The notes under the pieces: generated by a model
Seen by the model: only the letters and a program-made list of their open reading frames with translations
What the model was told of the DNA's origin: nothing
Databases searched by the model: none
Program-made: the position numbers and the translations under genes
Source: a virus
Reading direction: 5' to 3' (one strand)
Virus record (IMG/VR): IMGVR_UViG_3300024513_000016
Location: 32,001-96,000 of that record
DNA length: 64,000 bases
In this document: one piece after another, positions 4,800 through 46,279 of the stretch
Position numbering within the stretch: position 1 is the first letter of the stretch
How the letters are laid out: every line of letters starts with the position of its first letter

Positions 4800-5396
4800 T
4801 TATTTTAACTCTTCGTTATTTATACATTTATCAAAACCAAATCCAAGATACGTCCTACCATTATAAATTAATTTTTTATTTGAACCATTTCCATCAACAA
4901 AATGTAAAAAACATTGAAGATTCCATTTACTTTTAGAAATTGGTCCAGAATTTGATAAGTATCTACTGTCAAAGATACATAGGTCACCCGGATTTAAATT
5001 AATTTCAATAGAATCAAATTGTTTATTAACTCTATTAAGGTGGATTGGATCTACATCATTTTCTTTTGAAAATCCTAAAGATAAAATTGCCGTAATTTCA
5101 CCAGAATTTTTATTTACATCGTACTGTAATTGATCACCTTTCATATACATTCTAACAAAACTATATGTTGGAAGTATATTAATTCCTAAAATCTCACCTA
5201 AAGGTTCACATGAATTTTGTAATATAACTTCAGACAGAGAATCATAACAAAAATCATAAGTATTTTGATAAAGATTAATATCACTTGAATTAATTTTCAA
5301 TGTAAAATAATCTTGGATAAATTCAACAAAATCTTCTTCTAAAAAATTTCTAATTATTTTATAATGATCACTTTTAAAATTTTGAGGTTCTATCAT
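4800..5396 (-). CDS. 2OG-Fe(II) oxygenase-like protein, metal ligands degenerate
   Basis: LPTYSFVRMY..GD.L, LNPGDLCIF and QCFLHFVD..G match the cyanophage 2OG-Fe(II) oxygenase family, but the HxD and distal His are missing. Confidence 0.65.
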   Translation of the reverse strand: MIEPQNFKSDHYKIIRNFLEEDFVEFIQDYFTLKINSSDINLYQNTYDFCYDSLSEVILQNSCEPLGEILGINILPTYSFVRMYMKGDQLQYDVNKNSGEITAILSLGFSKENDVDPIHLNRVNKQFDSIEINLNPGDLCIFDSRYLSNSGPISKSKWNLQCFLHFVDGNGSNKKLIYNGRTYLGFGFDKCINNEELK

Positions 5397-5401
5397 AATT
5401 T

Positions 5402-6070
5402 TTATTTAAATCTTGGACCAATTACCCAACCAACAAGAACATATCTAGTTCCTTTTGTAATAGGAGTACATTCATGAAGAACATTAGATGGAAAAAATGT
5501 AATTAATCCTTTTTTCTTTTCTATAATTTGAGGAGTTTTACTTAAATGCAATCTCAATTCACCACCTTCATATTCAGACGGATCTGAAAGTTGTAATACA
5601 AAAGAAAGTTTCCTATCGTGTGGAACATTATTGTATATTGTATCCAAATGTGGTTTGTAAAAACTCTTAGTATTTCCATAATATTTTGTAAACTGAAGCA
5701 TTTCAATTTTTTCTAAATCAAATTTAAAATACTCAGAATTAACATAATTTATACAATCAGTTAATCTTTGATAAATCCATTCTGTTACATTATTAACAGG
5801 AACCCAAGATAATTTAGAAATTCTAGTTTGAATTTCTAAATCATTATTAGTTGAAACTAATGCATCAACTTCAGGAATACGATTGCAAATGGAAATTATT
5901 TTATTCAATTCATTATCTTTAAATAAATCACTATAATAATAAAATAAACCATTATTATTATAATTTTTTAAATAATATTCTTTTGCATTAACTACACTAA
6001 GTTCATCTTCATCTATCAATGGTCTGACCATGTTAATGATATTTTTACTTTTTAAAAATTTAGATATCAT
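5402..6070 (-). CDS. 2OG-Fe(II) oxygenase (PKHD/prolyl-hydroxylase-like)
   Basis: YKPHLD...RKLSFVLQLSDPSEYEGGEL...FPSNVLHECTPITKGTRYVLVGW. Confidence 0.9.
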   Translation of the reverse strand: MISKFLKSKNIINMVRPLIDEDELSVVNAKEYYLKNYNNNGLFYYYSDLFKDNELNKIISICNRIPEVDALVSTNNDLEIQTRISKLSWVPVNNVTEWIYQRLTDCINYVNSEYFKFDLEKIEMLQFTKYYGNTKSFYKPHLDTIYNNVPHDRKLSFVLQLSDPSEYEGGELRLHLSKTPQIIEKKKGLITFFPSNVLHECTPITKGTRYVLVGWVIGPRFK

Positions 6071-26648: not shown

Positions 26649-29155
26649 ACGCAGTCAACAACCGTAAGTATTCCAACTTGATTAATAATAACTCTTGGGA
26701 GAATTGATAGTTGAGGCAGATATTCCAGAACTGGATATAAATCTGCACCTTCACCATTTTGACTATTTATAATCGCATTAGGAAGTGCATCAAAAATATT
26801 AGCACAAGTAATAGATTGAATTCCAACAATAGATCCATTAGGAGTAACAATAGGGGTAAATGTACAAAGACCTACTTGAATGACATCCCCTGTCGAATAT
26901 CCAATTCCAGGATTTTCTACGACAATTGATGTTATAATTCCAACAATATCAGTTCCAACTCCAGGTCCAGGTGGTATGACATTATCAAATATTTCTTTTG
27001 GAAATGTTCCAACTCCAGTTGAAACTGGAGTTCCAGGTGGAGTTTGAATAGGATCGTCCGGAATTGGAGTAAGTATTGGAGATAGTCTATTTGATATGTT
27101 TACTATGGTCCTTGCTACAATAACACCAGAGGTATCTTGTAAATCAAAGAACATCTGTTCTACAGATTCTTGTATACTATCTTGACGTATTTTAACTTTA
27201 ACTTGTGCAGTATTTGATTTTATTGTCACACTTCCATTCATACTTCCTTCTATATCATTAGAAGTAATATCTCCACCCAACATATAAGATAAAGATGTAT
27301 TATCTTTAACATTTTGAGTAAAAATAGTATAAGTTACAGTTTCACCTTCAAAAAAAGTATATCTATCTGCAGTAACCAAATATGAAGGAATATCAAACTC
27401 TGAACTTAAATCTGGTGGACAATATCCTGTTCCAGATCGAGTTAGATATATTTGCGTAATTCTTCCTCTAGAAATAGATGCAGATGCTTTTGCACCAGAA
27501 CCGTGATTTGTTTTATCTACTATTGAAATTCTAGGTGGTTTACTGTATCCAAATCCAGAATTAATAATTTTTACAGAAATTATGCTTCCATCTTTTGAAA
27601 CAATTGGAACTGCCTTTGCCCCAGATCCATCTCCAAATATTTCTATCTTAGGTGGAACACAATATGGATATACTTTTCCTGTATCAGTCAAATCATCTTG
27701 ACCCTTTGGAGTTTTTACTTTTTTGGTACAATCTCTAAATACAGAACCTTCATATCCATATAATGATAAAGAACCTAATGCATTATCAATATTATCATTT
27801 ACACCTTTGAGGACATTCATATTCCCCAAAACATTATTCCAATTATCAATCCCTGCTCGTTTAGGTCCAAACTTTAATGACCATTCAGATGGGGTTTTAC
27901 ATTTTAAACTATCACAACCAATAAAATTAAGAATTTGATTTGCAATTGAAGATACTTGAGATAAAATTCCTTTAATTTGAGATAATCCACCAAGTAACCA
28001 ATCAAGTCCAGACATTACTGGTTCTAAAAGTTCTTCAATTTTATCCATTAATTTAGAAAGAATTGCTGAAGTAAATTGTTCAGCAGCACAAAGTGGTGCA
28101 TTGATAGCTCTACCTACCAATCCCTTAAGCATATCTAAAAGAAAATCTAAAAGCAAATCTATAAGTTTCTCAAAGATACAAAATATAATATTCATTATAT
28201 TTTTAGTTGCTTCTGCAACTGGAGTATGTTGAGGTAAGGGTAAAACTAATGCAATAAATTTTCCAAACAAATCACCTACCAATTTCATTATGGTAGATCT
28301 AAAATTATTAATAATAAATTTAATTACTCCTGTAATTATTCTTGCAGTTCTTTTAATTTCATTAGTAATATCAATTATTGTATTTAAAACTGGATCTACA
28401 TAAGCATCAATATATCCTTCCAATCCATTAACTATTGTAATAAAATCTTGAATTGCCCTTGTAATCTTTCCAATTATATTATTATCACAACCATTTTCTT
28501 TTGTAATGGTAATACTACCTACTTCTTTTTGAATTATATCAAGTTGTTTATCAACATAAAATATTTTATCCTTACCAGAGTTCCTATCCGAACCTAGATC
28601 TACAGAAATTGGATTTTCAATTTTACCACCAATAATAGTGGGAGGAGATTCTTCTTCTTTAGCATCTCCCTGTTTAGGGTCAACAGTTGGTTGTATTTTT
28701 GTCTGGCCTTGTGCAACTGTTGATCCTAATGTGGTATCATTTCCTTCAAATGGTTGAAATGCTATATCAGATTCAGGAAATGATTTTACATTTTTATCTC
28801 TATGAATTACTCCAATTACTACTGGTTGTTGGGAATCATCACCATCTAGGAAAAATCCAAAAACAGTTTCTCCTCCAACTAATTTATGACTTTTACCTAA
28901 TCCACCTTGAGCACTACCATCAGTAGCACCAAGCATTATTTGTGCCCAAGGTAGATCTTTATCTGGAAGTTCTTTTTTATTATAGGTATGATATCCAATT
29001 ATTCTAACCTTACATCGATATGCCCAAGATCCACCAGTAACTATATCAACCTTTTCTGGTATATCCCATACCTTTGCAGGAGCAACCTGACCTATCCACC
29101 AAATAAAACCATCTTTTCCAAGATAGTTACTTTTTAATAAAGCATCATCAATCAT
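26645..29155 (-). CDS. g5: Baseplate hub subunit gp5-like (N-terminal OB fold)
   Basis: GKDGFIWWIGQV...RCKVRIIGYH...DLPWA...GETVFGFFLDGDDSQQPVVIG. Confidence 0.85.
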   Translation of the reverse strand: MIDDALLKSNYLGKDGFIWWIGQVAPAKVWDIPEKVDIVTGGSWAYRCKVRIIGYHTYNKKELPDKDLPWAQIMLGATDGSAQGGLGKSHKLVGGETVFGFFLDGDDSQQPVVIGVIHRDKNVKSFPESDIAFQPFEGNDTTLGSTVAQGQTKIQPTVDPKQGDAKEEESPPTIIGGKIENPISVDLGSDRNSGKDKIFYVDKQLDIIQKEVGSITITKENGCDNNIIGKITRAIQDFITIVNGLEGYIDAYVDPVLNTIIDITNEIKRTARIITGVIKFIINNFRSTIMKLVGDLFGKFIALVLPLPQHTPVAEATKNIMNIIFCIFEKLIDLLLDFLLDMLKGLVGRAINAPLCAAEQFTSAILSKLMDKIEELLEPVMSGLDWLLGGLSQIKGILSQVSSIANQILNFIGCDSLKCKTPSEWSLKFGPKRAGIDNWNNVLGNMNVLKGVNDNIDNALGSLSLYGYEGSVFRDCTKKVKTPKGQDDLTDTGKVYPYCVPPKIEIFGDGSGAKAVPIVSKDGSIISVKIINSGFGYSKPPRISIVDKTNHGSGAKASASISRGRITQIYLTRSGTGYCPPDLSSEFDIPSYLVTADRYTFFEGETVTYTIFTQNVKDNTSLSYMLGGDITSNDIEGSMNGSVTIKSNTAQVKVKIRQDSIQESVEQMFFDLQDTSGVIVARTIVNISNRLSPILTPIPDDPIQTPPGTPVSTGVGTFPKEIFDNVIPPGPGVGTDIVGIITSIVVENPGIGYSTGDVIQVGLCTFTPIVTPNGSIVGIQSITCANIFDALPNAIINSQNGEGADLYPVLEYLPQLSILPRVIINQVGILTVVDCV

Positions 29156-30708: not shown

Positions 30709-32420
30709 TATGCGAAAGATAAATTGGTTAAAAGAATTGTCTTAACTAAACTATTTACCACAGCACCTTCAGATGGTCCAGTGACTACTACCTGATTGCC
30801 ATTACCTCCACCACCTGAAGGAATAATAATTGGTTTTTGAGAACCACCACCCCCACCTCCAGATGCAATAATCATTGGTCTATCAATAATATAAGATTGC
30901 CCCTGAGAATAAGAAGGATAATATGCAACCATCTGAGGTTGAATATTTTGGGAAATTGAATCTGGTGCAAGTGAAACCATAGATTCATATGCAGAACTAG
31001 ATTGCATAGATGGAGGTTGAATTTTTGGAGATGTTTCTGCAGATTTAATTGCAGATTCTTCATTTCCCGCAAAAGATGTTTTAACTTCACCAAGTTTCAT
31101 TCCCACATCTGATGCTTTTCTTTCTGTAACTTTAACCGATCCACCAAATCTAAAATAAGAAGATGCAACACCTTTGGGATTTACTGGTTTAGTTCCAGGT
31201 CCCCCAGGTCTATACTCAAAATGAACATGAGGTCCAGTAGATCTTCCAGTGCTACCTTGATTACCAATGACAGTCCCTGGTGATATTCTTTGACCTTTTT
31301 TTACATTTACTCTACTTAAATGTCCATAAAAAGTTTCAGAACCATTATCATGTTTTACTGCAACCCAATTTCCATATCCTGCTTCAGTACCAACATCTAC
31401 AACTCCTGCCTGTAGAATGGAAACTGGTGCAGTTGGATTTGGATGTGCAAAATCTGCACCATTATGCATTTTACCCCATCTCCACCCATACCCAGATGTA
31501 AAATGCTTTGATGGATCATCTCCACCTTCTGCAGTAGTTACTGCACCAACCTCTTCAGTTGAAGGTTGTTCATCAATATAAGAAGTATCTACCTCTCCAG
31601 TTGCATCTTCCATGGGAGGGGCACCATCTTCACCCATTAATGATGCACCAAATCCACTCACAAATTTTTCAAATTTTGACACAACACTATCAAATCTCGA
31701 AACTACCTGATCAAATCCCGTAGTACTTTGAGCAGATAATTTTTGCTTTACTTCTTGTTCTTTTATTTTTTGCTCTGTTTTTTCTTTGAGAGATGTACCA
31801 GAAGTAAAATCCATTGCTCGATCTGCAGCATATCCACCTAAAAATCCACCAGCCATACTGCCAAGAACAAAACCTAGACCTGGTACAGGTATCAGTGCCT
31901 GACCTATGGCACCACCAAGCATAGACCCCGCAAGAGATCCTCCTGCCCCTGCTGCAGCCTTCCCTATACCTTCACCCTGTTGAAGTCCAGTGGCAAAGTC
32001 CAACCCCGCAAAAACAGCATTAGCAATTCCCAATGCTCGAATTCCACCAAGTCTAATTCTACCACCTCTTATCGATGGTTTTCCACCTGGAGTTTTAGAT
32101 TTAGGAGAACTTCCAACTTTCTCACCACGTCCAGGAAAAAATCCTCTTACTAACCCACCAAGATCTAAAGCACCACTTAATAATGATCCCAAAAGGCCAC
32201 CTGCATTTCCAAATGTATTAACGATATTAATATTTGCTAGTTGCCTTATTTTTTTCTCATCTGGTAATTTTATTCTTTCAATTTCAAATTTTCTAACTTC
32301 TAAGAAGTTCATAAATTGATTAAATTCCCCTTGAGCCTTAGGAAGTGCTCGATTGGAACGATTTCCAATAGATACAATATTATTTGCTGCAGTTGCTAAT
32401 GGTGATGATAGTACTGCCAT
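30708..32420 (-). CDS. Tail/baseplate protein with M23 metallopeptidase domain
   Basis: HNGADF...GYGNWV...YGHLS...GSTGRSTGPHVHFE; Gly/Ala-rich hydrophobic segment. Confidence 0.85.
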   Translation of the reverse strand: MAVLSSPLATAANNIVSIGNRSNRALPKAQGEFNQFMNFLEVRKFEIERIKLPDEKKIRQLANINIVNTFGNAGGLLGSLLSGALDLGGLVRGFFPGRGEKVGSSPKSKTPGGKPSIRGGRIRLGGIRALGIANAVFAGLDFATGLQQGEGIGKAAAGAGGSLAGSMLGGAIGQALIPVPGLGFVLGSMAGGFLGGYAADRAMDFTSGTSLKEKTEQKIKEQEVKQKLSAQSTTGFDQVVSRFDSVVSKFEKFVSGFGASLMGEDGAPPMEDATGEVDTSYIDEQPSTEEVGAVTTAEGGDDPSKHFTSGYGWRWGKMHNGADFAHPNPTAPVSILQAGVVDVGTEAGYGNWVAVKHDNGSETFYGHLSRVNVKKGQRISPGTVIGNQGSTGRSTGPHVHFEYRPGGPGTKPVNPKGVASSYFRFGGSVKVTERKASDVGMKLGEVKTSFAGNEESAIKSAETSPKIQPPSMQSSSAYESMVSLAPDSISQNIQPQMVAYYPSYSQGQSYIIDRPMIIASGGGGGGSQKPIIIPSGGGGNGNQVVVTGPSEGAVVNSLVKTILLTNLSFA

Positions 32421-44505: not shown

Positions 44506-45258
44506 TTATGGAGAAAGTCTTGCTTTATGAAGTCTCTTTTCTTCATAATAATCCCATACATTAGGTGCCCATCTTTTAAGAATAGGTGCAATTTGTTCAG
44601 TAAGTGCTTGAATCTCAAGTTGAGCATCTAGTTTTGCTCTAAGATCCATTAGGTGAAGAGCAGATCTGAGATTAAATGATACTACAAAATTTTGTCGGAT
44701 TGCTTGTGCAAGATAATCACGAATGTGCTCTTCGCACATACCCTTTTCATACTTTACAGCATACCTTTTACAACCCTCTAAAATCCAATTAAGTTCATCA
44801 TGATAATCTTCTTCTGTCCAATCATATTTTTTACCATAACGATTTACATAAAACCCAGGAGGACGAACGTAAAAAACATCTTCAGTATTAAGTTCCCCAC
44901 TTGCAACTTTTACAACTCTTTTTCCAGTATAACGTTGTGATTGAACATCAAAACTTACTCCCACTCTGTGAGTCCTTGCTTGCATCGCAACGTTATGGAC
45001 ATACCCAGAGACCGAAACGGTAATGCCAGGGTGCTCCAGAGGTCCCCAGTGACCCTTATCATTCGATAGGAGACGTTCTACAATCCATTTGCCACACCCA
45101 GATGAATTTGGAATGTCTTGAGTATGAATAGGTGTCTCAGAGTAATCACACTTTGCTGCCTGATAAATGACTTGTTCTGGAATTGGATAGCATTGTAGCA
45201 TTACTACTTCCAAATTTTTATCAAGTTCAAGAAGATCTTTTGCTTTAATTGGTTTCAT
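44506..45258 (-). CDS. thyX: Flavin-dependent thymidylate synthase
   Basis: GHWGPLEH, QARTHRVGVSFDVQSQRY, NLRSALHLMDLR...AQLEIQ. Confidence 0.93.
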   Translation of the reverse strand: MKPIKAKDLLELDKNLEVVMLQCYPIPEQVIYQAAKCDYSETPIHTQDIPNSSGCGKWIVERLLSNDKGHWGPLEHPGITVSVSGYVHNVAMQARTHRVGVSFDVQSQRYTGKRVVKVASGELNTEDVFYVRPPGFYVNRYGKKYDWTEEDYHDELNWILEGCKRYAVKYEKGMCEEHIRDYLAQAIRQNFVVSFNLRSALHLMDLRAKLDAQLEIQALTEQIAPILKRWAPNVWDYYEEKRLHKARLSP

Positions 45259-45592: not shown

Positions 45593-45630
45593 ATTTTACA
45601 TAAAAAAAGGGGGGAAGTCAAGTCCCCCTT
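45593..45630 (-). terminator. Terminator with embedded sigma70-type promoter
   Basis: AAGGGGGA-CTTGACT-TCCCCCC-T7 hairpin; TTGACT-17 bp-TAAAAT overlaps it. Confidence 0.75.
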
Positions 45631-45634
45631 CATA

Positions 45635-45736
45635 TTATTTTGCTGCTAACAAAGTAGCAAGAGATGCTTGATGACGACGTTCTTCTTTTTGTTTTTGTTC
45701 TTTAATCAATTGAAGTACATTAATAGTTTTAATCAT
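45635..45736 (-). CDS. Small peptide (33 aa)
   Basis: MIKTINVLQLIKEQKQKEERRHQASLATLLAAK; ATGA-coupled to the DUF4278 gene, SD GGAGG. Confidence 0.65.
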   Translation of the reverse strand: MIKTINVLQLIKEQKQKEERRHQASLATLLAAK

Positions 45737-45870
45737 TTATGTCCCTCCTTTACAAACTTAACCCCACGATAGGTCTCGTTGTATTGTTGAGGTTGTTGCA
45801 TCATTTGTTGTTGATACTCAAGACGTTTTTGGGTATCATACTCGACACCACGATAAACTACTTTAGACAT
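45733..45870 (-). CDS. DUF4278-like small protein (45 aa)
   Basis: MSKVVYRGVEYDT...ETYRGVKFVKEGHK with two YRGV motifs; SD AAGGAG; follows the riboswitches. Confidence 0.85.
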   Translation of the reverse strand: MSKVVYRGVEYDTQKRLEYQQQMMQQPQQYNETYRGVKFVKEGHK

Positions 45871-45902
45871 TAGGGTTGCTCCTTTACTTTTTAAGGTTAG
45901 GT

Positions 45903-45948
45903 GGCGTTCCTTCCGTCGGCTTTTGCGTCCCTTAGTAGGATGAACGAC
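45903..45948 (-). ncRNA. Glutamine-type riboswitch aptamer 2 (glnA/Downstream-peptide family)
   Basis: GUCGUUCA-UCCU-ACUAA-GGGA-CGCAAAAGCCGACGGAAGGAACGCC; P1 CGUUC/GAACG; directly upstream of a DUF4278-like gene. Confidence 0.8.
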
Positions 45949-45989
45949 CTACTCTTTTTCCACAATAGGTATAGAAAAACATAGGCATT

Positions 45990-46244
45990 CCGTTCCGAGT
46001 CGGCGTACTTCCGTCCTATTTAATTTTAGCACTTTTGAATAAAATCCTTTCGGAGTTCTAATAGCAATCGGTCTTCTGTTCTTTGATTAACTACATCGTC
46101 GTTTTTAACGATGTCCATTAGTTCCCACACAGTATCACAACTAAGTTTAACTGCATATTCAGTTGCAGTTAGTTGTGAAGTAGAAAAAGAAAGAAATGGA
46201 ACCCATGCTAAAAGCAAAAGTGCTTTAGCCATAGGATGAACGAT
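45990..46244 (-). ncRNA. Glutamine-type riboswitch aptamer 1, with an ORF in the P2 loop
   Basis: 5' half AUCGUUCA-UCCUAU (46244-46231); 3' half AUAGGA-CGGAAGUA-CGCCGACUCGGAACGG (46019-45990). Confidence 0.75.
46026..46232 (-). CDS. 68-aa protein with N-terminal hydrophobic segment, nested in riboswitch P2
   Basis: MAKALLLLAWVPFLSF...LSC...QKC; signal-like N-terminus and two Cys. Confidence 0.7.
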   Translation of the reverse strand: MAKALLLLAWVPFLSFSTSQLTATEYAVKLSCDTVWELMDIVKNDDVVNQRTEDRLLLELRKDFIQKC

Positions 46245-46250
46245 AATTGC

Positions 46251-46279
46251 AGTATACTACCTACAATATATCTAGTCAA
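46251..46279 (-). promoter_or_regulatory. Sigma70-type promoter for the riboswitch transcript
   Basis: TTGACT-17 bp-TATACT; predicted +1 near 46244, the first base of aptamer 1. Confidence 0.85.

Follow-up and report, generated by a model that had tools for sequence, protein, structure and literature searches.

Organization of the Locus

The viral DNA analysed here is a stretch of 64,000 nt (hereafter the window) corresponding to positions 32,001 to 96,000 of a 112-kb IMG/VR phage record (IMGVR_UViG_3300024513_000016), whose neighbouring genes are typical of T4-like cyanophages. Its minus strand carries two tandem aptamers related to the type-1 glutamine riboswitch (Rfam family RF01739), which precede a DUF4278/IF17-like gene. 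The first one (aptamer 1) is split in two halves by a complete protein-coding gene, the open reading frame (ORF) named ORF1, which occupies the loop of its stem P2. That this conserved gene-in-aptamer architecture is real is close to certain. The elements of aptamer 1 and its nested gene are the following (positions refer to the window):

46251-46279 (-), sigma-70-like promoter: TTGACT (46279-46274), 17 nt, TATACT (46256-46251), matching 10 of 12 consensus positions
near 46244 (-), predicted transcription start, giving a leader of ~12 nt without a Shine-Dalgarno (SD) sequence
46230-46244 (-), 5′ half of aptamer 1, AUCGUUCAUCCUAUG, with the P1 5′ strand CGUUC (46242-46238), A (46237) and the P2 5′ strand UCCUAU (46236-46231)
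46026-46232 (-), nested gene ORF1, 68 codons coding 68 amino acids, supported by the ORF list, its homologues and its substitution pattern
45990-46019 (-), 3′ half of aptamer 1, AUAGGACGGAAGUACGCCGACUCGGAACGG (AUAGGACGGAAGUA...GGAACG), beginning 6 nt past the ORF1 stop codon; inside it are the P2 3′ strand AUAGGA (46019-46014), the CGGAAGUA junction, a mini-P3 and the P1 3′ strand GAACG (45995-45991)

The AUG of ORF1 (46232-46230) belongs to the aptamer, its AU falling in the P2 5′ strand. P2 (UCCUAU/AUAGGA) is found at the right place, one nucleotide after P1, and its loop is a 195-nt gene instead of being tetraloop-sized. The mini-P3 corresponds to the AC?/CG-CCGA-CU region. The exact words CGTTCATCC and GGACGGAAGTA are present in the 64-kb window solely at these aptamer sites. 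The promoter, the two halves, the ORF and the complementarity of its ends had been proposed in a first-pass annotation made from the sequence alone, and all of them are correctly placed on the minus strand. The anatomy deduced there (a complete gene in the P2 loop, a start codon whose AU lies in P2, an extension of P2 by the paired ORF ends, and a DUF4278 gene downstream) is borne out by the comparative data.

A scan of promoter-like sites found six, versus about five in shuffled sequences, so that the promoter call is weak on its own; its position is conserved in related loci. In most relatives (L002-L081, e.g., L005:1375-1405) the -10 hexamer is found in the loop or between the arms of a covarying inverted repeat that stops a few nucleotides short of the aptamer. 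The arms are GGGG/CCCC, GGAG/CTCC, GAGG/CCTC or GTGG/CCAC, and in marine loci (L238-L242, about 440-490) GTGTTA/TAACAC or TGGTA/TACCA. The window copy (46262-46249) differs. This repeat might bind a protein or fold into a hairpin, as DNA or as RNA.

The following features lie downstream from aptamer 1:

45949-45989 (-), inter-aptamer spacer of 44 nt with hairpin potential
45901-45948 (-), compact aptamer 2, type-1-like glutamine riboswitch with P2 UCCU/GGGA (RF01739, 27.8 bits)
45879-45884 (-), SD sequence AAGGAG of the DUF4278-like gene
45733-45870 (-), DUF4278/IF17-like gene coding 45 amino acids with two YRGV motifs (PF14105, E = 0.0017, below its cut-off; phrog_5049, E = 1e-10)
45635-45736 (-), ORF of 33 amino acids with an ATGA overlap with the preceding stop codon; weak PHROG matches only
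45603-45628 (-), intrinsic terminator-like hairpin (45628-45610) plus T run, likely the operon end

A DUF4278-like gene follows the aptamers in the same synteny in all relatives inspected. The spacer between the aptamers, 44 nt long in the window, measures 3 nt (GAU/GAA) in almost all relatives and ~20 nt in a few. The neighbouring ORF 44506-45258 is read as a thymidylate synthase gene (ThyX) from its own sequence and its synteny with phage S-SRM01.

Conservation of the Aptamer Halves

At least 250 homologues of ORF1 were found in metagenomes; 209 IMG/VR viral loci carry one, and 80 of these were compared. Both aptamer halves are kept in 77 of the 80 loci, where CGUUCAUCCU-AUG abuts the ORF1 start and AUAGGACG(G/C)AAGUA...GGAACGG is positioned 4-8 nt past ORF1. 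The 10 nt preceding the AUG and the segment AUAGGACG.AAGUA are invariant in 43 unique ORF1 loci, while the post-stop spacer of 4-8 nt varies in length and sequence. For the third codon positions of ORF1, the mean major-allele frequency in the 43 unique sequences is 0.85, and the median synonymous divergence (dS) is 0.39.

These data bear on the possibility that the halves are the decaying remnant of an aptamer broken by an insertion, or a mere coincidence, with no present function. Such an origin would fit the lack of gathering-level Rfam matches in the window (see below) and the fairly close relationship of the ORF1-type sequences, whose proteins are 65-81% identical. It is difficult to reconcile with halves that stay invariant over a dS of 0.39 around ORF1, and of about 1.0 around ORF2 (the gene nested in the second aptamer of many relatives; see below), next to spacers that change in length and sequence. 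Furthermore, the layout is common to marine and freshwater phage genera, P2 covaries, the fold has a z score of -5 (see below), and the related loci are dozens of distinct sequences rather than assembly duplicates of one genome. A relic or a chance arrangement is therefore considered very improbable.

Folding of the 255-nt RNA

Pairing between the beginning and the end of ORF1 extends P2 into the coding sequence. The elements concerned are:

46215-46224 (-), 5′ strand of the ORF-end helix, AGCACUUUUG, codons 3-6, exact 10-bp complement of 46037-46028
46028-46037 (-), 3′ strand of the ORF-end helix, CAAAAGUGCU, covering the final codons of ORF1 and the U of its stop
46192-46214 (-), 5′ strands of three further long-range helices within ORF1, codons 7-14 (RNAalifold, 26 sequences)
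46046-46077 (-), 3′ strands of these three helices, codons about 52-63 (RNAalifold, 26 sequences)
46093-46114 (-), internal 8-bp hairpin in ORF1, ACAUCGUU...GACGAUGU, nearly invariant
46202-46235 (-), alternative local 5′ hairpin, CCUAUG/CAUGGG plus GCUAAAGCA/UGCUUUUAGC, -13.5 kcal/mol

The minimum free energy (MFE) of the 255-nt RNA is -71.4 kcal/mol, versus -50.2 ± 4.3 kcal/mol for dinucleotide shuffles (z = -4.97; none of 200 shuffles is as good). P1 (CGUUC/GAACG), P2 and the ORF-end helix are all closed in the MFE and centroid structures, and closure of P1 and P2 is computed to add ~-7.8 kcal/mol on top of the ORF helices. Consensus folding of 26 sequences by RNAalifold recovered P1, P2, the ORF-end helix, the three additional long-range helices and two internal hairpins. 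Standard pairs are found in 99.1% of the 1426 pair cells of this alignment, as compared to 39-59% when the partners are slid. The six consensus pairs of the ORF-end helix (46224-46219/46033-46028) have 98.7% of their cells paired and feature one compensatory CG to UA change; the further long-range helices (RNA nt 31-53 with nt 168-199) reach 98.5-99%. Covariation in the ORF1 set is sparse (three compensatory pairs, a number equalled by 7 of 500 shuffles) because the sequences are closely related. Synonymous sites are more conserved in paired than in unpaired columns (0.95 versus 0.84; one-sided p = 0.03). In the internal hairpin 46093-46114, which encodes DIVKNDDV, they are almost fixed and one of the 26 sequences has a compensatory CG to UA change; this hairpin may have a role of its own.

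The first-pass annotation had also described a local hairpin that competes for the same 5′ bases. The hairpin does exist and is larger than described: it is predicted in the nascent RNA, at the energy given above, in truncations of 45-200 nt and, when enforced in the full RNA, lies 5.3 kcal/mol above the MFE. It cannot be taken simply as an “on” state because its CCUAUG/CAUGGG pairing sequesters the AUG as well.

A custom covariance model (R1) was built from second-aptamer sequences only (9 compact and 3 ORF-containing ones, with the ORF treated as a loop insertion). It matches 45988-46244 over its full length with ORF1 as the P2-loop insertion, a score (14.5 bits, E = 0.003 in 8 kb) that is marginal on its own. 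The single-aptamer relative L019 attains 21.4 bits (E = 3e-4) with the same model. A third candidate of the record (27919-28041, 12.6 bits) falls inside an open reading frame and was discarded as a chance match.

Relationship to the Type-1 Glutamine Riboswitch

Judged by their covariance-model scores, the aptamers are borderline-to-member of RF01739, with a variant P3/loop-E arm. The Rfam model cannot bridge an insert of ~200 nt and the split aptamer is thus not scorable by it. With an E-value cut-off in place of the gathering score, compact aptamer 2 is all that Rfam detects in the window, aligned end to end (27.8 bits, E = 6e-4; the gathering score is 35). ORF-less forms of aptamer 1 are found in the freshwater phages DSL-LC02 (metagenome-assembled) and S-SRM01 (an isolate) and in 31 unique metagenomic variants, with the same promoter position, 3′ half and synteny as the split form. 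Their short P2 hairpins covary freely (UCCC/GGGA, UCUGG/CCAGA, UUCGCUAUU/AAUAGCGAA and others). Natural ORF-less first aptamers score 35.6 bits in DSL-LC02, 35.1 bits in P-SSM2 and 35.9-40.1 bits in 7 of 17 metagenomic variants; the remaining metagenomic compact variants have 31-34 bits and other marine compact first aptamers about 25-26 bits. Compact second aptamers reach up to 40.1 bits. The glutamine-II model RF01704 gives 15.2 bits in the window and at most 29.8 bits in relatives, for a gathering score of 33.

The P1 strands CGUUC/GAACG are present, paired but invariant in all 26 aligned sequences, and P1 is 99.8% paired over 80 distinct aptamers. The junction GGACGGAAGUA that follows P2 is identical to the Rfam consensus at 11 of 11 positions and invariant in 43 loci except for one position that is G or C. 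In the solved glutamine-I aptamer (5DDP) the ligand is contacted by C1:G59 and by G2:C58, in a triple with G22 (PMC6698751). According to our own alignment, equivalents of C1, G2, G22, C58 and G59 are present in the CG of CGUUCA, the G of the ACG junction and the CG of GGAACG.

The P3/loop-E arm departs from the family. Aptamer 1 has no GAA strand of the loop-E motif, the GAAG ahead of GGAACG is replaced by CG, and P3 is reduced to ~2 bp (xG-CCGA-CU). Aptamer 2 is devoid of the AGUA strand of loop E. The absence of the GAA strand together with a 2-bp P3 may weaken or abolish glutamine binding in aptamer 1. It could accordingly be imagined that the split aptamer no longer binds glutamine and that its halves and the ORF-end helices build a ligand-independent fold. 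Such a fold might protect the 5′ end and circularise the small mRNA against RNase E or J, or provide an RNase III/RNase E site that parts the nested from the downstream mRNA. Besides the altered arm, a P1 starting about 2 nt from the predicted 5′ end, the long irregular duplex of about 30 bp and the RNase E-linked processing site found within a Synechocystis glutamine riboswitch (PMC8682795) would suit these roles. However, ORF-less forms with the same P3/loop-E deviation still score 35-40 bits and so reach the Rfam threshold, every glutamine-contacting position of the solved structure is kept and invariant, and a plain clamp needs no invariant CGGAAGUA junction. A purely structural role is consequently improbable, and we incline to the view that the split aptamer 1 still senses glutamine.

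The Second Aptamer and Other Phages

Roughly two thirds of the ORF1 loci (freshwater) have a split second aptamer as well. The layout is CGUUCAUCU-AUG-G, an ORF of 50-59 codons (ORF2) and CAUAGACGCAAAAGCCGAC-UGA-AGGAACG. The ORF2 family matches phrog_504 (E = 9e-16 to 0.011) and was found in 370 IMG/VR loci and in 128 phage records (tblastn); both aptamer halves surround ORF2 in all 80 freshwater loci compared from the 370. In marine phages, at least 42 of 54 unique loci have an ORF2 nested in the P2 loop of aptamer 2 according to strict regular expressions. The nested layout is present in the seven phage genomes inspected (P-SSM2, S-SSM7, S-SKS1, S-CAM4, S-MbCM100, S-SRM01 and DSL-LC02). Five of them, of marine origin (P-SSM2, S-SSM7, S-SKS1, S-MbCM100 and S-CAM4), have in succession the promoter, a compact aptamer 1, a spacer of 3-4 nt and a split aptamer 2, arranged as CGUUCAUC(C/U)(C)AUG, the ORF and CAUGGGACGCA...GGAACGG, followed by an SD sequence and the DUF4278-like gene. 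The architecture is found in hundreds of related marine and freshwater cyanophages. In every variant the AUG begins 3-5 nt past CGUUCA, within the P2 5′ strand, and is not preceded by an SD sequence. Note that the nested gene is annotated as hypothetical in phages (e.g., SSSM7_289) and as “predicted protein” in GU071092, and that the nested 50-codon gene of P-SSM2 (L238, NC_006883.2 245213-245362) has no feature in the RefSeq record.

The P2 covariation that the first-pass annotation had recommended to look for in related loci was found across the nested ORFs. About 96 split second aptamers score 22-64 bits with R1. In an alignment of 80 distinct split aptamers, which was fitted to R1 and hence favours the structure, P2 shows eight compensatory pairs and 113 compensatory cells versus 47 ± 5 in shuffles (0 of 500), with 89% of the P2 cells paired versus 31-52% when slid. 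P2 covariation is also observed when 24 freshwater sequences are aligned independently with MAFFT. The two terminal 24-nt segments of ORF2 co-evolve, in that their native duplex has -14.9 kcal/mol versus -11.8 ± 0.5 kcal/mol with permuted partners (0 of 5000).

In the ORF2-type unit the overlap between gene and aptamer goes further, the last six codons and the stop codon being the aptamer core itself. The C-terminal residues ((I)DAKAD or DAND) and the UGA or UAA stop are encoded by GACGCAAA..GACUGAAGG (L004:3386-3406, L238-L242). The function of the RNA thus fixes the tail of the protein. At one locus (L063:3245-3373, identical to L216) an in-frame deletion of 48 nt leaves an ORF2 of 35 amino acids with the aptamer halves and the P2 extension intact.

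A scan for aptamers with inserts of 90-120 nt gave 67 matches, about the number expected by chance, of which only those in L192 and L216 are real; no other nested gene was found within this size range. The second aptamer of L192 (7095-7214, minus strand) has a 95-nt P2 insert starting from UCCUAUG that encodes MIELALLA followed by a stop codon and looks like a decayed nested ORF. The aptamer is otherwise intact, and two tRNA genes are found nearby (5351-5498).

The variable occupancy of the P2 loop raises the question of whether the nested gene is a passenger. The aptamer would then serve only the IF17-like gene, as part of a tandem with a more digital response, and the small gene would be cargo in an insertion-tolerant loop, comparable to the homing-endonuclease ORFs that occupy intron loops. 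Its ends would be complementary only to keep the aptamer foldable, and the AUG in P2 would reflect compaction and not control. Presence of the ORF is indeed polymorphic: 31 unique loci have a compact and 13 a split aptamer 1, and 11 have a compact and about 25 a split aptamer 2. The decayed remnant in the otherwise intact aptamer of L192, the two loci that hold ORFs without aptamer halves (see below) and the better conservation of the halves relative to the ORF are also what would be expected of a passenger. This does not account well for the AUG being found at the same place of the P2 5′ strand in four sequence-distinct variants, with a matching CAU opposite, nor for the lack of an SD sequence or leader of its own in every nested gene. 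In addition, no protein family other than the Cys-x34/35-Cys one is ever found nested, even across the marine-freshwater split, and the scan for inserts of 90-120 nt detected no other gene, which is unlike opportunistic cargo. A mere passenger gene is therefore rated as unlikely, albeit the most serious of the alternatives.

In most relatives, only 3 nt separate the P1 3′ strand of aptamer 1 from the P1 5′ strand of aptamer 2, and these two strands are complementary to each other. One marine lineage (L269, L273, L293, L311 and L320, about 545-600; also L249, L270, L272 and L313) carries a double change, G to C in aptamer 1 (GGAACG to GCAACG) and C to G in aptamer 2 (CGUUCA to CGUUGA), which preserves the inter-aptamer hairpin and leaves each P1 helix with a mismatch. 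Some loci of this lineage have lost the 5′ half of aptamer 1.

The Nested Proteins

The ratio of nonsynonymous to synonymous substitutions (dN/dS) is 0.25 for ORF1 and 0.36 for ORF2, with a dS of about 1.0 for the latter; indels come in multiples of three. Both nested genes are, from these patterns, under purifying selection. The signal-like N-terminus and the cysteine pair recognized in the first-pass annotation are part of a defined protein organization: ORF1 codes a signal-peptide-like N-terminus, a variable linker and a conserved helical Cys-x35-Cys domain with the invariant pattern SC...WELMDIVKN...EDRLLLELR...C, the cysteine pair being invariant among homologues. ORF2 has the same cysteine spacing (Cys-x34/35-Cys) without a signal-like segment. 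Alignment of the two families by hhalign pairs Cys with Cys (P = 0.008, probability 5%) and they are probable paralogues.

ORF1 has no Pfam or PHROG match, phrog_504 included, and a search of the ESM Atlas retrieved only its own viral cluster. Its AlphaFold2 model (mean predicted local distance difference test score, pLDDT, of 59) has three helices with a low-confidence helical hairpin, and its quality does not suffice for a fold search. ORF1 is hardly found outside viral contigs: no match was obtained by tblastn against isolate phage genomes, and the cellular-genome search gave no evidence for a host copy, its single match being on a 3.8-kb contig of a metagenome-assembled genome that is likely phage DNA. 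Assignment as a lipoprotein or spanin was dropped since no lipobox is found next to the hydrophobic segment. Our guess is that the nested gene codes a small helical protein stapled by a disulfide, which in the case of ORF1 would be exported.

Interpretation and Proposed Mechanism

The anatomy described above is well supported; from it we infer glutamine binding and a control of nested-gene translation, and the mechanism that follows is put forward as a proposal. We moderately favour a phage operon in which tandem type-1 glutamine aptamers precede an IF17-like (DUF4278) gene, the first aptamer being built around a protein gene that it would control. The P1 and P2 5′ strands, holding the AUG, would emerge directly after the transcription start, while the P2 3′ strand, the core and the P1 3′ strand would follow the stop codon. 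The nested mRNA would fold back through ~30 bp between the start and the end of the ORF, forming a long irregular extension of P2, and this pairing would allow the aptamer core to assemble across 207 nt. Glutamine would stabilise P1-P2 closure and hide the SD-less AUG, turning off the nested Cys-x35-Cys protein at high glutamine. As P1 and P2 closure is worth only ~-7.8 kcal/mol, a modest contribution from the ligand could determine if the first 15 nt are exposed or buried. Conversely, a ribosome on the nested gene must unzip the P2 extension, and translation would thus keep the aptamer open. That the split aptamer acts in this way as an OFF switch on the nested gene is conceivable at somewhat less than even chances.

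In Synechocystis, the DUF4278 gene gifB is turned on by its type-1 glutamine riboswitch (PMC6212724). Compact aptamer 2 would likewise turn on the IF17-like gene at high glutamine, giving a reciprocal output. Depending on the glutamine level, one short transcript would then yield either the Cys-x35-Cys protein (low) or an IF17-like inhibitor of glutamine synthetase (high). An extension to T4-like cyanophages in general (including P-SSM2, S-SSM7 and S-SRM01) is suggested more tentatively: their gene-in-aptamer riboswitches might be two-input gates, in which aptamer formation requires a nested gene free of ribosomes and initiation of the nested gene requires low glutamine. The AUG-hiding nascent hairpin, the inter-aptamer complementarity and the marine double change indicate that the conformational scheme may exceed two states.

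Several observations weigh against this interpretation. No Rfam family reaches the gathering level anywhere in the 64-kb window, and the R1 match has E = 0.076 across the 112-kb record, where it is second-best. P1 and P2 of the ORF1-type aptamers are invariant, covariation coming from the ORF-less forms and the paralogous aptamer 2; the pairing of exactly this aptamer rests therefore on conservation and thermodynamics. The missing loop-E strand and short P3 of aptamer 1 and the burial of the AUG by the nascent 5′ hairpin as well, both described above, have to be counted too. Finally, L024 and L043 (2 of the 80 ORF1 loci) retain the ORF but not the aptamer halves, so that the protein is not strictly dependent on the aptamer. 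The aptamer 3′ halves are deleted there (L024:3205-3460, L043:3205-3260) and ORF1 is kept, together with ORF2 in L024; in L043 a terminator-like hairpin is found directly 3′ of the ORF.

Comparison with Known Systems

The glnA aptamers, their tandem arrangement, their link to DUF4278/IF17 and their occurrence in cyanophages are already known (Weinberg 2010, PMC2864571; Klaehn 2018, PMC6212724). In the searchable full-text literature, which did not extend to Ames & Breaker 2011 and Ren 2015, no account of a riboswitch loop that houses an ORF was found. Riboswitches are understood as compact leaders placed before the genes they control, whereas here the sensor wraps around a gene: the coding sequence provides ~30 bp of the P2 arm and the start codon lies inside a sensor helix. 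If the mechanism is true, translation would be physically coupled to ligand sensing in a direct manner, with opposite outputs from one short mRNA, and this would represent a class of riboswitch with coding sequence as a structural part of the sensor. The arrangement is immediately testable since it exists in the published model phages P-SSM2, S-SSM7, S-SKS1, S-CAM4, S-MbCM100 and S-SRM01. It bears on how cyanophages read and manipulate host nitrogen status via IF17-like glutamine synthetase inhibitors. It also exposes a blind spot of covariance-model annotation, in which aptamers with long inserts score as nothing.

The closest known system is RF01739, with which the aptamers share the CGUUCA...P2...GGACGGAAGUA...GGAACG core, the P1/P2 topology, the tandem layout, the downstream DUF4278 gene and the occurrence in cyanophages. 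They differ from it in the P2 terminal loop, normally of about 4 nt and here a whole gene of 50-68 codons whose AUG is part of P2, as well as in the 2-bp P3 and in the loop-E strands absent from aptamer 1 (GAA) and aptamer 2 (AGUA). The glutamine-II (Downstream-peptide, RF01704) aptamers also have CGUUCA, a hairpin, CGCA and GGAACG, and precede short ORFs in picocyanobacteria; marine compact aptamers score similarly on the two models. However, RF01704 has a pseudoknot and no three-way junction, its short ORF is downstream of the aptamer rather than inside, and the aptamers studied here score lower on it (15-30 bits, gathering score 33) than on RF01739.

Genes within RNA structures are familiar from introns. 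Homing endonuclease and maturase genes sit in terminal loops of group I and II introns, where they are tolerated by the fold, and the flanking strands still pair. In the present case the nested protein is devoid of nuclease and maturase domains, the gene is housed in a putative metabolite sensor whose helix contains the start codon, and no intron ribozyme core was detected (no group I or II family at the Rfam gathering level in the window). Mutual exclusion between translation and the fold of a leader is known from leader-peptide ORFs, as mgtL in the Mg2+ leader of Salmonella mgtA and the attenuation peptides. Leader peptides are short regulatory read-outs with little conservation at the protein level; the nested genes code conserved proteins of 50-68 amino acids with dN/dS of 0.25-0.36 and an invariant cysteine pair, and, unlike leader peptides, these proteins probably act on their own. 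Masking of a start region by pairing hundreds of nucleotides downstream, opened by ribosome passage, is found in the RNA phages MS2 and Qbeta. The long-range pairing described here differs in that it is predicted to rebuild a small-molecule aptamer, in the mRNA of a DNA phage.

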